The position numbers were made by a program. Source: Gammaproteobacteria bacterium (GTDB lineage Bacteria; Pseudomonadota; Gammaproteobacteria; UBA12402). From it: a stretch of 64,000 nucleotides of DNA. Each line of letters begins with the position of its first letter. Position 1 is the first letter of the stretch. Of this stretch, positions 27,001 through 33,000 are shown in pieces. The stretch is from the NCBI GenBank assembly GCA_016930035.1, contig JAFGHQ010000042.1:16437-80436 (forward strand), read 5' to 3'.

Positions 27001-30000
27001 CTTACGGTCTTTGATTTTTGCCCGTTCTACGATCATGCAACTTTTGGTGTCTGACACCAAAAGTTGCATCGAAGTAGTTGAAAAACGAAGAATGCAGCGT
27101 ATAATATTTGCTAGTTACGTAATTAATACTTAGTTTATATTAATCCCGCCATCACAACAAAAACTCAAAAAGGCCACGGATTTATGATTTTAAAAGGGTT
27201 TTAGGATGCCAATCGATTTCGGAACCTTATTAAACACTATTGAATTGGGTCATTTTTCAGATTTTGCTGAATTTAAAACCCGCTTATTAGTAGATCCTGT
27301 TAATCCTTTTAAACTCACTAAAGCTGTTCAAAAATTGATTCTTAATTTACACAACGCACATGCAGTGCGCTCTGGGCACTCTGATACTGAGTCAAACTCA
27401 TCTACCTCAAGTACTAATGATGCATGGGGTGAGGCGGAAAAAGCGGAAGCGCTATACCAATTGTTCAGAGATCCAAGGCTTGCCAAAGAGTTAGGTTTAA
27501 CTCCAGAACAATTTAGAAAAATATATTGGGCTCTTACATCTACCATAGCTTTAATTCAAAAAAGTACTAACTATAGCCACAAATCGCCTACAGATAAGTT
27601 AAACTTAATAATATCTCGTGCTCAACTCTTACTAGGAGCAATAACTTATTGGGACCCAGAGGATGAGCAAGCTGTTGAGAAACCTAGAAAGCCCAAACTA
27701 AAAAAAACTCAAAAGCTTTTGGAACAATATCGTATATGGCAGGCTAAAAAAAAGAATGCTATTGAGCTTGACAAAGAGAACAGCGATAAGCTTACCAAGG
27801 CTTACCAGGATCTCAACCAGAAATATCAAGATCAACGAACCATGCTTTTGGCCAATTTAAAAAAGCGCTTGCTAGATCCTTTGAAACAATCTCTAAGAAA
27901 CTTACCTGGCTTAGCTAGTAATAGGATTATTTCCGATGAAAATAATCGGCGTTTTACGAGTCTTCTAGATTCAGTAAAGGTCGAAGTTGAAACAGCTATC
28001 GATAATTTAGAAAGCTCTCTTCCGGAAAATCTTCCCGAAGATCAACAACAAAAATTTTTAACTGATCCTATTCGTTATTGGAGAGATCGAACTTCGGCAT
28101 TTCGACAGAATTTAAACGGGGCATTAACGACGATTCAAAAGCAAAATCAACCTGTTATTCGGGATTATGAGAAAATTACTCGAGATAAAACCATCCAAAA
28201 AATTGTTTCAAATGTATTAGGATTCTGTCTTTTATGTATTCCCCACCTTATAAGACTAGGCATCAAAGGTAAGGGAAAAGGATTCCTTTTTTACTCACAA
28301 GCTCCCGATCCAAAAGAAGCAAAAACCACTGCCGATACACACGCAATATTAAACCAACCTCATCGACTTCTGCCGGCTCGTTAAGTCGAAAAACTCATTC
28401 GGATTCGGTAATCATCTCAATAAAAGTTTTCTATATTTGATGAACTAATGATTCATCCATTCCAGGGACAGTCTCTATGACTTTCTGATTATACCAAGCT
28501 TGGACTTCTTCATCTTCCCAAAGTTGTTGAAATCTTTTAAATCTAAAATAATCCTCTTCACGATCAATACCGATACTTATTAATGCATTTAATTCCCTCA
28601 ATTTAGCATGCAAATCTTCTGACTCAACTCCCTGTAGTAGACATTGAGTAAGATTAACAATGTGCCCGTTCGGATTGTATGGTCGCTTCCAAAATGTCTT
28701 CATTTCATCATTCATTTCCTTTTTTTGTTCTTCAGAAAAGAAAGCCAAAGACGTCTCTGATAATAAAACTCCCTGCTCAGGCTGCTGCAGAGCCCTAATT
28801 TTATCCTCAACCGCATTCAAACGGGTATTTAACTCTTCCAAAGTAATTTCATGACAGCCTAAAATTTCCCCATATTCAGAAATATTTTCCCCGTTAGAAA
28901 ATCTTACGTTTAAACACTTTAATAATTTTTTCTCCTTTTTGAGCAAATGTTTTTTAAGCTTTAGAGAAAAACGTTGAATAGTTAATTTAATTTCACTTAA
29001 ATTAAGACTTCCTGTTTGTTCTTCGGGATTAATCTGTGAAAAAAAATCGGGTAATCTTTTCAAAAAAACTAATAATTGTTCGCAAATTAAGTCAATACAT
29101 TTATAAAGCTTTAGATCACCCTCAATAGAATCAAATCTCTTCAATTTATTTATAAATAATCCCAAACGGGTTAGCATATTCTCGATAGCGCCCCGTTGCA
29201 TGAAAGGAGTAGTAACATATAGAGAAGGGTCCTCTTGATCACTTTGAGTCAATGTACTTCCTGGTTTTAAAACTCTTCGATATGCGAAAACCCCCTGATC
29301 TTGTTTTGTGGCAATAATTGCTAATAAAAGTGAATTGATCGGGGTGTCTACTTGAAAACTTGCTTCCCCCCCTATGTCAACAATTGATCGGCGGAGTCGA
29401 TCAAAAAAAATAGTGAATTGTTCACCAAATTGTTTTCTCATGGACAGAGCAGGAGGTTGCGTCAATGCAAGTTCTTTTCCTGTTAACTTTGAAAAAAAAT
29501 CTCCGAGTTTATTTACCATTTTATTTAGATGCTCTCTTTGCCCATCTTGATTCGGCTTAATTTTGATTCTCTCAAGAATAGACAATAATTCTTCACACAA
29601 AGTGGATAACTGATTTCGAACTTCTTCTAAAACATCTTCTTGTTCAGTCAAGAAGCCAGATAATCCCCCATAGAAAACCATTAAATTAGCAATCATTGCT
29701 TCAACAGATGTCAATTGCATACTGGAATCGCTAACACTCTCTAAAACCCGAGTGGTCGCATAACTAGCTATATCCCGATTGGTTTTTTTTAACAACGCTT
29801 TAAATTCTCGAGTCAAAACTTGTCGTGTGATAAGCATTTCTTTGATTTCGCCTAAAACAGAGATGATAATTTGGCTCATGGTTTCTCTTAAACTACGCTG
29901 ATTACTACGCGCCTGTTCAATTATTTGTCTAATTCTTTTCGCTTGCGCTTCCTTTCTTATTCTATCACCTTCAATTTTTTGTAGAAGTTCCTCCTCTCTC

Positions 30001-33000
30001 TCCCTTGCTTGTTCTTTTTGTTGTTGTAGTGCTGCTTCCTGTAAACTTATTGCTTTTTGATAATTTTCAACTTCTTGCGCCCTTTGTTCAATTTGGGATT
30101 GGAGTTGTTGGATGGATTCTCGATCTTCAGTTTGTGCTTGTTTTAGTCCAATTAACTGTTGATTCAAGTCTTGAATTTGCGATTGGGCTTCTTGCCTTTC
30201 TTCCTCGCTGGTATTTTGGGTATCTTGACGGCTCTTTTCTAAATTTTCTATTCGTGATTGTAATTCATTGATACCCTGCCCCTTTTCTGCCAGAGTACTT
30301 TCAGCCTCCCGTAATTTTCGTTGTAAATTTGCTAATTCCTCTTCTCTTTGTCGGGTTTGGATTTGTTGTTCTTGGAGTTTTGCTTCAAGTTTTTGGTGTA
30401 CTTCTTCAGCTCGTTGGCGTTGTTCTTCGGCTTCTTCTCGCAAACGTTTTGCCTCTGCGAGCTGCACTTCTAGGGCATTGAGTGTTTTTCGATGACTTTC
30501 ATTGGCTTCTTCCATCATCTTTCTATAGTTTTCATCCAATTCTCGTCTTATTTGTTCTTCAATTTTTGCTCTCTTCGTCGTCTGTTTTTCTTGCAACTGT
30601 TTTCGATAGATCTCCATTGCTTGAGCTTGTTCTTCCCGAAGTTTTTGCATTTGTTCTTCATGTCTTTTTATTATATTTTCCCTCTCGTCTTCTGCTCTGG
30701 AACTATTTTGAGTTGATAATTCCTCTAATTCTCTAGCATGTTTTCCTTGTAGATCGTCTATTGCTTGTTGATTAGTGGCTTCTTTGGCTCTTAAGAATTC
30801 AGCCAACTGACTTCTTAATTGAACTAATTGTTCCTCCAAAGTATTTGTATAGCGTTCATTTAAGAGCCTTTTTTGTTCTTCTAAATCACTTTGAAATGCT
30901 ATGTTGAGTTGCCTTATTTGCTCCTCATACCGTTGCGTCAAATTTTCCACCGTTTCAAAAGGAATCGCCCTTGAAAGCACTTGCTGTAATCTTTCATTTT
31001 CTCTTAACAATAGACTATACTGCTCTTGTATTTGTTCAAGATTGCTTTGTTGGCCCTGTAAGTCCTGAAGTAATTTTTCAACTTGAGCTTCTAACTCAGA
31101 AGCATCTTGTTGATTTATTTTTAACGCTTCAATTTCAGTATTTTTCTTTTTTATTAAATTTCGTAATTGTGCTACGCTCTTTTTTTGACGCTCGAGCTCT
31201 TGTTGTAGTGCTTCCTGATTTGGTCTGATAGACGTTCGGCCCCCGCGTTGACCTTGCCTTTCTAAGCGCATGGCTTGTAATTGCTTGTTTTGTATCTCAA
31301 GTTTTTTTCTAAGGCGTTCATTTTGTTGTTGTAATTGTCGTAGCTCTTTATTCAAGGGGGCTGTTTGTTTCCTTAATTTTGCCTGGAATTGTTGTTCATA
31401 TTGTCCAACCAAATTTTGTTCTACTATATTTAATTCTTGCGCTAAATTTTCACGAACAGTTTTTTCAATCTCCCTTGCTCGTTGATTTAGCTCCCATTCC
31501 CTTTTTTGCATTTCTTGTTGCTGTTGGGCCAATAAATGACGTAATTTTTTAATTTCTTCCTGTTGAGAAGTTTCACCCCCGTTTGGTTGGATTTCTTCAT
31601 CAGAATCAAATATATTTTCTTGTTCCAATTGCTGTGGATCTAATTCTAAATCTGAGAGTTCCCCGTCAAAAGATTGTGGATCATAACCAGGTTTTGTTGT
31701 TTGGATAGGGGTAGTGAACCCCTCTAGAGGAGGAGGAGGAGGAGTGGAAAACTCATTTATATCTGTCAACGAATCTGGAGGAGGAGGAGTGAAAAACTCA
31801 TCTATATTCAACGATGGATTTGAATTAGATGGTTCCTTACTAGGAGTCTGTGGTTGTTCTTCTTGTGATTTTAATAGTTCTGAGTCAAACATAAAATCTC
31901 CTAAATTTTAATTAAGCTATAGTGGGGCTGTTAAAATTTGAACTTTTTCCAAAAAACAAAGACTATAACTCTTTGTTTTTACTGGGTCCTGAATCAAGTT
32001 CAGGATGACTAACGGACAGATTTCAACAGATCCATAATGAATATTATTGAGAATAATAAAATTTTAAAATCCTGGCCGCTTTCCTCCCCTTTGGGGTTTT
32101 CTAAAGGTCCTTATGCTTCCTAGATTGATTGGCTTGGTAACTGTTCGGCTTGGTCTTGGTTGCCCTGTTCTTTGACCCCTTACTGGTTTTGGTTTTGATG
32201 TAATTGGTATCTGCTGTGGTTTGAAAGTATTCTGACGCTCCTTGCTGCCCTGCTGATTTAATGCTTCTCTTCGTTTTTTTATAATTATTATCATTTTTCT
32301 AGCTTGCTGTTGTTCTTGGGCTAACTTTCTTTTTTCCGACTCAATTTCTTCTTGTAATTTCTTGCGTTGTTCTTCTATTTTTTGTTCTCGCTCTTGATTT
32401 TCCTGTAAAGATTTTTGAGCTGAATCTAACCTATCTTGTAAAAATTGTTTTGATTCTCCTATTTGTTCCTGGCCCAATTCTGCTAAACGTTTTTGAAGAT
32501 TCGCTATTTTCTGCTTTAAAATTTCCATTTCTGCTTTATTGAACTCTAATTGTCGTTCCAATTCTTCTATTATTTGAAGCTCTAGCGCTTTTTCTACATT
32601 TTGTGTTACAGGGCGCTCTGTATTCGGGGGGCGACGTCTTATACGCTGAATCGTTCTTAATTTTGATTGGGGGGGGCGGCGGAAGGGGTTCTCTTGACCT
32701 CCCTCTTCTCGTCTACTAGTAATAGGATTCTGCGGTTTTCGTCTGATAATCCTTCCAGGCTGCTGCATGTCTCGAGTTTTTTCAGGAACTACTACTGGTC
32801 TTTGTCTTATTTTTTGTAATATGCGTGTGGTGGTTGTCTGAGAGTTTCTTGAAACTCTTGGGTCTATAGTACGTATGGATTTTACTACTGTAGGAAACTT
32901 ATTTTTAACTTGGGTTTTTAATTCTTCTAAACAAATTTTAAAATTTTCTGAAATTTCAAGCGCCGTTGTTTTTTCAATATAAGTGAGAAAGGTACCAATG

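Follow-up and report, generated by a model that had tools for sequence, protein, structure and literature searches.

An orphan gene for a protein with a duplicated proline-rich motif and a predicted helical rod in a probable Legionellales-like symbiont

This report concerns an orphan protein-coding gene on the minus strand (28431..31892) of a 64-kb stretch of DNA, hereafter called the window, from contig JAFGHQ010000042.1 of the Gammaproteobacteria bacterium assembly GCA_016930035.1. The listing of open reading frames (ORFs) in the window gives a single unbroken frame with an ATG start that encodes 1153 aa and is followed by a stop codon, and the intact frame that an earlier reading of the DNA (the original prediction) had announced was thus found at exactly these coordinates. 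A Shine-Dalgarno-like AGGAG, read from the sequence, lies on the same strand 5 nt upstream of the ATG (31898..31902). The identical protein is encoded in the metagenome-assembled genome (MAG) at NCBI, where it carries the locus tag JW855_02155 and is annotated as a hypothetical protein of “Gammaproteobacteria bacterium”, and in the independent Logan assembly of run SRR13394437. A chance origin of the 1153-codon frame was excluded, since the DNA has a GC content of 37% and the longest plus-strand ORFs that overlap the gene reach only 84–88 aa. The target is therefore a real, intact gene.

The GC content of the gene (36.5%), its GC content at third codon positions (GC3; 26.6%) and its synonymous-codon score (0.126) all fall inside the range of the housekeeping genes of the window. 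This housekeeping-like composition indicates that the gene is long-resident, and a recent foreign origin was ruled out on the same grounds. Eukaryotic contamination or a chimera was also ruled out, because the target is located between bacterial genes on one contig and was reproduced by two assemblers. A sigma-70-like promoter match upstream of the gene (31934–31905) is not credible, as transcription would then begin inside the ribosome-binding site or beyond it; sites resembling promoters were not commoner than in shuffled sequence (27 observed versus 33.6).

Our searches identified the target as an orphan without detectable relatives. When 5.8 billion clustered proteins were searched with the full-length sequence by a word index, the target itself was the only match among the best 8000 candidates; it was also the sole match of an exhaustive phmmer search with residues 660–1153 against 1.84 billion representatives. 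No Pfam family was found at E ≤ 0.01, and the phage and anti-phage defence families of PHROGs and PADLOC gave no match. An NCBIfam match to the SMC arm (TIGR02168; 19.7 bits against a cut-off of 567, arm region only) was rejected as composition-driven noise; the protein has no SMC_N domain in Pfam, no Walker A motif (G....GK[ST]) and no ATPase head that would place it among SMC, MukB or JetC proteins. For the C-terminal half, the best match of a phmmer search against PDB sequences had E = 0.71, and a Foldseek comparison of the low-confidence C-terminal model with PDB yielded TM scores of 0.22 or less, mostly with designed helical repeats. BLASTP detected no paralogue in the window. We also scanned 185,579 GTDB species genomes, a collection from which the MAG of the target is absent, using the adjacent SAHH gene as the anchor. 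This provided 68 loci, in which the best SAHH relative was just 75% identical; searching them by tblastn with the target and 10 of its neighbours revealed no match and no shared neighbours.

The protein can be divided into a head, a rod and a C-terminal domain. The structural assignments below use AlphaFold2 models that were calculated from the single sequence, with a mean pLDDT of 49; at this low confidence, only their secondary structure is usable. According to its composition and the model, the head (residues 1–109; 31566..31892, minus strand) is acidic, Pro-rich and predicted to be disordered. It contains 24 Asp and Glu, 3 Lys and Arg, and 18 Pro residues, and it lacks predicted secondary structure, with a block pLDDT of 29–42.

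The head holds the motif [DN]EF[FS]TPPPP(P) twice, and the two N-terminal EF(F/S)TPPPP(P) units of the original prediction are thus present. In the translation, unit A (NIDEFFTPPPPDSLTD) covers residues 29–44 (31761..31808, minus strand) and unit B (INEFSTPPPPPLEGFT) covers residues 45–60 (31713..31760, minus strand); they read FFTPPPP and FSTPPPPP, respectively. The protein has one run of four Pro residues (36–39), one run of five (51–55) and no further ones, and among the 50 ORFs of at least 100 aa in the window, runs of four or more Pro residues are unique to the target. At the DNA level, the window contains exactly two occurrences of the core GAGTTTTYCACTCCTCCTCCTCC, versus 0 expected in shuffles. 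The units are spaced by 45 nt and share a 31-nt core with 29/31 identical positions (31777–31807 versus 31732–31762), while the flanks outside the core show ~80% identity with a 6-nt offset. Tandem Repeats Finder (TRF) reported a period of 45, 1.9 copies, 87% matches and 7% indels. The duplication had been described as near-perfect over ~45 bp; the period of 45 nt holds, but near-perfect identity is restricted to the 31-nt core, and the overall match is 87% with indels. The Pro codons of unit B form a perfect trinucleotide run, (GAG)6 on the plus strand and CCT in the gene (31727..31744; TRF period 3, 6.0 copies, 100% matches), and in-frame slippage of this (CCT)5–6 run is conceivable. We observed no sign of current copy-number variability in the two diverged copies, the gene being available from one sample, and the repeat core had 0 exact matches in JGI metagenomes.

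We compared the head with known short linear motifs by regular expressions. Inside the duplicated unit, there was no canonical EVH1 motif FPx(phi)P, no SH3 class I or II motif, no WW motif (PPxY, PPLP or PPR), and no GYF or Homer motif. The EVH1 class I core, [FYWL]PxPP or [FYWL]PP(phi)P, is absent from the whole protein. The sole match of the SH3/WW/GYF/Homer type is PQTPSK (PxxPxK) at residues 14–19, outside the repeat; generic matches in the head consist of the runs of four and five Pro residues and four (S/T)P sites. In comparison with the FFAT pattern of VAP ligands, E[FY][FYHW][DEST][ACST]x[DE] in an acidic tract, EFFT and EFST fit the first four positions only, and positions 5 and 7 are Pro. 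The head contains no clathrin, AP2, EH or DEF pattern; a LIR-type pattern has matches only elsewhere in the protein. Profilin-binding tracts of the FH1/VASP type comprise about five or more consecutive Pro residues and usually occur several times per protein. The proposal of the original prediction that the proline units are ligands of host domains is supported indirectly, by the protist-symbiont context and the BEACH-ankyrin neighbour described below, while the canonical SH3 and WW patterns are absent from the unit. Polyproline is selected against in bacterial proteomes, since ribosomes stall on it (PMC5811046). The retention of two Pro runs despite this counter-selection suggests that they have a function. 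In E. coli, polyproline motifs are overrepresented close to the sites where translation starts, positions at which a pause may be of use (PMC5811046).

The rod (residues 110–719; 29736..31565, minus strand) is rich in Gln, Glu, Lys and Arg and contains five helices in the AlphaFold2 prediction (110–213, 223–308, 315–393, 399–557 and 563–719), separated by short Gly/Pro/Ser breaks at 214–222, 309–314, 394–398 and 558–562. Asp, Glu, Lys, Arg and Gln make up 52% of its 610 residues (111 Asp and Glu, 106 Lys and Arg, and 102 Gln). When the peak of hydrophobic periodicity was sought between 3.3 and 3.8 residues and compared with shuffles, the five helices gave 3.68, 3.48, 3.72, 3.50 and 3.56 residues, with z values of 3.5–7.6; two helices are thus heptad-spaced (3.48–3.50), two are hendecad-like (3.68–3.72) and one lies at 3.56. 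Heptads were scored with a metric of our own, in which a 28-residue window counts when 6 or more of its 8 a/d positions are hydrophobic. By this measure, heptad windows cover 71% of the rod, compared with 26 ± 9% of shuffles, 30–40% of globular window ORFs (ordinary enzymes) and 100% of tropomyosin; at 7 of 8 positions, the coverage is 25% for the rod versus 97% for tropomyosin. Residues 380–467 contain zero heptad windows. The stretch of ~390–469 is 42–53% charged with dense i/i+4 pairs of opposite charge, resembling a single alpha-helix, and the density of i/i+4 salt bridges has its maximum (0.28) in the window 430–469. BLASTP found no internal protein repeats in the rod. These results support a helical, amphipathic rod but not a uniform heptad coiled coil; of the near-continuous heptad coiled coil that had been predicted, the long amphipathic helical rod with significant periodicity stood, whereas the heptads proved patchy. 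A single thymosin/WH2-like LKKT is located at residues 701–704 (29782–29793, minus strand; context EFKALLKKTNRD), within a predicted long helix. It is 650 residues away from the proline motif and is probably due to chance.

The C-terminal domain (residues 720–1153; 28434..29735, minus strand) is predicted to be all-alpha, with ~17 shorter helices, and its composition is more hydrophobic than that of the rod. No transmembrane segment or signal peptide-like segment was found in the target, the top 19-residue Kyte-Doolittle mean being 1.42. The last 30 residues (LWEDEEVQAWYNQKVIETVPGMDESLVHQI; 28434..28523, minus strand) carry a net charge of −6, with Val at −4 and Leu at −5, and may constitute a secretion signal. 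C-terminal Dot/Icm signals are characterized by an acidic or Glu-rich stretch (the E-block), by small polar residues and by a hydrophobic position close to −3/−4. The C-terminus of the target is the most acidic among 38 ORFs of the window; two other family-less ORFs rank second and fourth, so that family-less ORFs supply three of the four most acidic C-termini.

The target belongs to a run of family-less genes (26216..34383). The neighbours in this run, none of which has a Pfam or PHROGs family, encode 208 aa (26216–26842, plus strand), 392 aa (27206–28384, plus strand), 507 aa (32064–33587, minus strand) and 159 aa (33904–34383, plus strand). None of the four shows paralogy to the target, and the 392-aa and 507-aa products have coiled-coil matches in NCBIfam/PADLOC that are far below threshold. 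The 507-aa ORF combines a basic Arg/Pro-rich stretch with a coiled coil. Another family-less gene, also without a Pfam or PHROGs family, encodes 666 aa (20461–22461, plus strand); both this ORF and the 208-aa ORF have strongly acidic, Ser/Glu-rich C-termini (net −4 and −5, respectively) that resemble secretion signals.

Next to this run lies a gene for a eukaryote-like PH-BEACH and ankyrin-repeat protein of 1113 aa (34602..37943, minus strand; Pfam Beach 4.1e-69 plus Ank families). Its top matches are all eukaryotic, with Anaeramoeba flamelloides first, followed by Ectocarpus and other brown algae, oomycetes, Paramecium and other ciliates, and animal WDFY3. Identity to the eukaryotic matches is 33–44% and extends over the BEACH region only, and the combination of BEACH and ankyrin domains occurs in none of the matches listed for the 1113-aa protein.

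The remaining window consists of ordinary gammaproteobacterial housekeeping genes, including PBP2-RodA-MltB, SAHH, two-component systems, ABC and MFS transporters, and a nonribosomal peptide synthetase (NRPS). The NRPS has two modules (A-T-C-A-T; 1678 aa, 58687–63723, plus strand), and in the Logan contig the gene runs on into another large ORF. Two AAA_14 and DUF4143 ATPases (18677–19882 and 41927–43285, both minus strand) flank the wider region. An antitoxin-like protein of 258 aa with an HTH and a SocA/Panacea domain overlaps a family-less 125-aa ORF (39106–40240, minus strand), and the two possibly form a toxin–antitoxin pair. A 465-aa protein (40483–41880, minus strand) has two deoxynucleoside-kinase (dNK) stretches; this tandem dNK fusion points to salvage of nucleosides, a common trait of bacteria that depend on a host. 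A 167-aa ORF (17125–17628, minus strand) matches only positions 26–137 of the 260-position model of the serine dehydratase alpha subunit. It sits among genes for tRNA-Ser (16961–17049), tRNA-Arg (18010–18087) and tRNA-Ser (18416–18508), and probably represents what remains of a gene within this group of tRNA genes.

Repeat elements are frequent between the genes. Most of the 171-nt gap between the target and the upstream 507-aa gene is filled by a copy of a ~110-nt element (31919..32042, minus strand) with terminal inverted repeats, two hairpins and a T-run after the second hairpin, as derived from the alignment and consensus of the repeat families D2, D3 and I1–I11. At least nine copies are present in the 64 kb, in both orientations and in intergenic positions (9451–9508, 16728–16838, 22793–22910, 26887–27026, 31919–32042, 34424–34528, 38294–38383, 43429–43547 and 44104–44286). 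With their 17-nt terminal inverted repeats (GGGGCTGTTGAAATCTG ... CAGATTTCAACAGCCCC), these elements look like miniature inverted-repeat transposable elements (MITEs); Rfam has no matching family. The 26-nt first hairpin, GTCATCCTGAACTTGATTCAGGATCC, is found at 16755–16780 and in six other copies, and it has at least 120 exact matches in JGI metagenome contigs with a GC content of 26–67%. The full element was detected in 0 of the 120 metagenome loci fetched with this hairpin (L072–L191). After the GTCATCCTGAACTTGATTCAGGATCC hairpin there is often a related one, of the GGATTCCGGATCAAGTCCGGAATGAC type, and a small GIY-YIG-like ORF occurs within 600 nt of the hairpin in just 4 of the 120 loci.

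Two mosaic intergenic arrays of 28–44-nt hairpin modules of the “GTCAT...” type (22500–22930 and 37940–38400) share 85-nt arms that are 93% complementary, and the second includes a perfect 44-nt tandem pair (38094–38181). The arrays bracket a 15-kb segment with genes for a phosphodiesterase, YkuD and SAHH, the family-less run with the target, and the BEACH-ankyrin gene. Judged from coordinates, the Logan contig with the target gene terminates within repeat elements on either side (~27043 and ~38034). A 36-nt perfect palindrome, ATGCAACTTTTGGTGTCAGACACCAAAAGTTGCAT, is located at gene ends (20351–20386, 24699–24734, 26095–26130 and 27035–27070) and resembles a REP element or a bidirectional terminator.

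The lineage of the source genome was examined with PBP2 from the same contig. Its nearest relatives, at 56–61% identity, are encoded in uncultured gammaproteobacterial MAGs, and Aquicella (54%) is the first named genus among the matches. The second-best match (P0124, 61%) is encoded in GCA_018812595.1, in which the PBP2-RodA-SLT order is conserved. GCA_018812595.1 is a member of the family UBA12402, which includes the amoeba symbionts Candidatus (Ca.) Cochliophilus cryoturris and Ca. Centrionella anaeramoebae (bioRxiv 10.64898/2026.04.11.717937). The latter is an intracellular amoeba symbiont located at the microtubule-organising centre (MTOC) of its host, with 36.4% GC and a predicted type IVB secretion system (Dot/Icm; T4BSS); it has ankyrin and NRPS families, an expanded AAA/DUF4143 gene family, 786 singleton proteins and a BEACH-domain effector candidate closest to Anaeramoeba flamelloides (bioRxiv 10.64898/2026.04.11.717937). 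The window closely resembles Ca. Centrionella in its AAA/DUF4143 and NRPS genes, in a BEACH protein with A. flamelloides as the best match, and in GC content. The source genome most likely belongs to a Legionellales-like protist symbiont of the order UBA12402, to judge from these sequence comparisons. The T4BSS is highly conserved in Legionellales, while the effectors are “much more versatile” (Hugoson et al., PMC8896642). We infer that a Dot/Icm system is present in this organism from its placement near UBA12402 and Aquicella and from the conservation of the T4BSS throughout Legionellales.

These observations are best explained if the target is an accessory protein that evolves fast, is specific to its lineage and belongs to a Legionellales-like intracellular protist symbiont. 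Within this frame, we tentatively favour a translocated scaffold or tether directed at the host. In such a protein, the acidic disordered head would display the duplicated short linear motif, of a kind that is typically read by eukaryotic proline-recognition modules (profilin or atypical modules of the SH3/EVH1 type) or by proline-directed kinases acting at TP sites. About 585 helical residues would form the rod, partly as coiled coil and partly as charged helix. At ~0.15 nm per residue, the rod would measure up to about 85–90 nm when fully extended, and it would probably oligomerise. The all-alpha C-terminal domain of 430 residues would engage another partner, and the acidic extreme C-terminus would act as the export signal. 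Secretion, the host target, oligomerisation and binding by the proline motif are putative throughout. We favour translocation because the gene is unconserved in a lineage with a fast turnover of effectors, because it adjoins a eukaryote-derived gene within a run of family-less genes, because two polyproline runs were kept although bacteria select against polyproline, because there are no Sec or transmembrane features, and because the C-terminus, with its net charge of −6, ranks first in acidity. The native codon usage and the lack of any phage or defence family were counted as further points for a translocated scaffold. A more specific version, in which the target is a translocated mimic of eukaryotic long coiled-coil scaffolds that links the host cytoskeleton (e.g. 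the MTOC) physically to the symbiont or to the compartment around it, with EFxTPPPP as a new class of docking motif and the C-terminal domain as a new binding fold, is highly improbable.

Several points weigh against translocation. The 64-kb window contains no secretion-system genes, including dot/icm genes, and the searches in Pfam, NCBIfam and the protein collections showed neither a known effector family nor a domain of eukaryotic type to which the target is homologous. The duplicated unit fits no canonical pattern of the five recognition classes that we compared (EVH1, SH3, WW, GYF and Homer), and coiled-coil rods are also found in purely bacterial structural proteins. The EDEE cluster of the target lies at −28 to −25, and nearer the end there are only single Glu or Asp residues; the E-block of Legionella is positioned at −10 to −17. 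As evidence for an effector, the acidic C-terminus is weak, since it was noticed post hoc. Both structure models have a pLDDT of 49, a low confidence at which the fold of the C-terminal domain is not inferable. Finally, the apparent placement in UBA12402 and Legionellales rests on one protein of ~60% identity together with shared features, and not on phylogeny.

The same rod could instead serve the bacterium itself. The target would then be a cytoplasmic coiled-coil scaffold, with a cytoskeletal, polar-organising or chromosome/division role in the manner of crescentin, FilP/Scy, Ccrp or DivIVA, and the proline head would be a linker or a translation-pausing element, as the enrichment of polyproline near translation starts in E. 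coli might suggest (PMC5811046). The long amphipathic helical rod with its significant periodicity of 3.5–3.7 residues is consistent with this role, as are the native codon usage, the weak, sub-threshold matches to SMC coiled-coil arms and the fact that neither a signal peptide nor a transmembrane segment was found. However, such proteins are normally conserved at least within an order, and no relative was found even though UBA12402 MAGs such as GCA_018812595.1 contribute to the searched collection. In addition, the target has neither a Walker A motif nor an SMC head, it lies in a family-less run by a eukaryote-like gene rather than in a division, cell-wall or partition operon, and its rod falls well short of the regularity of a canonical coiled coil. 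We therefore regard an intrinsic scaffold as somewhat unlikely.

An improbable alternative is a fibrous protein, such as an adhesin or fibril, that is exposed on the surface or released by a type I secretion system (T1SS) or a non-classical route, and whose rod projects the head off the cell. Fibrous coiled-coil adhesins exist in bacteria, and the predicted extended rod and the acidic termini would suit such a protein, but the N-terminus of the target is not Sec/Tat-like, and the protein lacks transmembrane and anchor segments, matches no autotransporter, RTX, LPXTG or other surface-protein family, and has no adjacent transporter genes, the nearest ABC transporter being 18 kb away. The frame might also have little or no function, as a low-complexity ORF that is young or decaying and that is tolerated as a Gln/Glu/Lys/Arg-rich sequence in an AT-rich symbiont genome that is full of repeats and mobile elements. 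The lack of relatives, the single sample, the biased composition and the repeat elements that litter the surrounding region speak for this origin. It appears very improbable, since 1153 codons have stayed open at 37% GC, where stops are expected every few dozen codons, and since the gene has a good ribosome-binding site and housekeeping-like codon usage. The protein also falls into three regions that differ in composition, one of them a helical domain of 430 residues with a hydrophobic core and no repetitive sequence, and no internal repeats were detected in the rod.

If the target is an effector, it would be a candidate for interaction with the host, from a branch of Legionellales that has barely been studied, the order UBA12402, whose members are symbionts of anaerobic and testate amoebae, and it could help to explain how a symbiont is positioned inside the host cell. 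Its proline motif fits no canonical class, and its C-terminal domain has no relatives. At present, it is one more unconserved hypothetical protein rich in coiled coil, a type often found in intracellular bacteria.

The nearest precedent for a coiled coil combined with a proline-rich segment in a Legionellales effector is VipA of Legionella pneumophila, which carries a proline-rich region. VipA is a Dot/Icm effector and actin nucleator with a coiled coil, a separate actin-binding region and no enzymatic domain (PMC4767423; PMC3285593). It has 339 aa and a 70-residue coiled coil, in contrast to the 1153 aa, the 600-residue rod and the N-terminal proline motif of the target, and the two proteins share no detectable sequence similarity. 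In Listeria ActA, tandem (D/E)FPPPP repeats are the ligands of Ena/VASP EVH1 domains. The target likewise has a tandem unit with acidic and aromatic residues and four to five Pro residues in a disordered acidic region. Unlike ActA, it lacks the core [FYWL]Px(phi)P, as FT (one residue, unit A) or ST (two residues, unit B) parts Phe from the Pro run; moreover, ActA is anchored at the surface, with a signal peptide and a transmembrane anchor, and the target has neither.

Crescentin, FilP/Scy, Ccrp and the arms of SMC, MukB and JetC also form long helical rods with heptad-type periodicity, but the target differs from proteins of the crescentin, FilP and SMC type by its additional 430-residue C-terminal domain and polyproline head, and by not being conserved in related genomes. 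The rod composition resembles that of eukaryotic long coiled-coil rods. Golgins and coiled-coil proteins of the centrosome or MTOC share with the target a disordered head with motifs, an interrupted Gln/Glu/Lys/Arg-rich rod of several hundred residues and a terminal binding domain. In contrast to these eukaryotic scaffolds, the target is bacterial in its context, ribosome-binding site and codon usage, and it has no homology in databases that include eukaryotes. Among symbionts, the comparison is with the effector candidates of Ca. Centrionella anaeramoebae. Coiled-coil proteins have 0 occurrences in the description of this bacterium (bioRxiv 10.64898/2026.04.11.717937). It probably belongs to the same order as the source genome, and it likewise has a BEACH candidate closest to Anaeramoeba and many ankyrin proteins.

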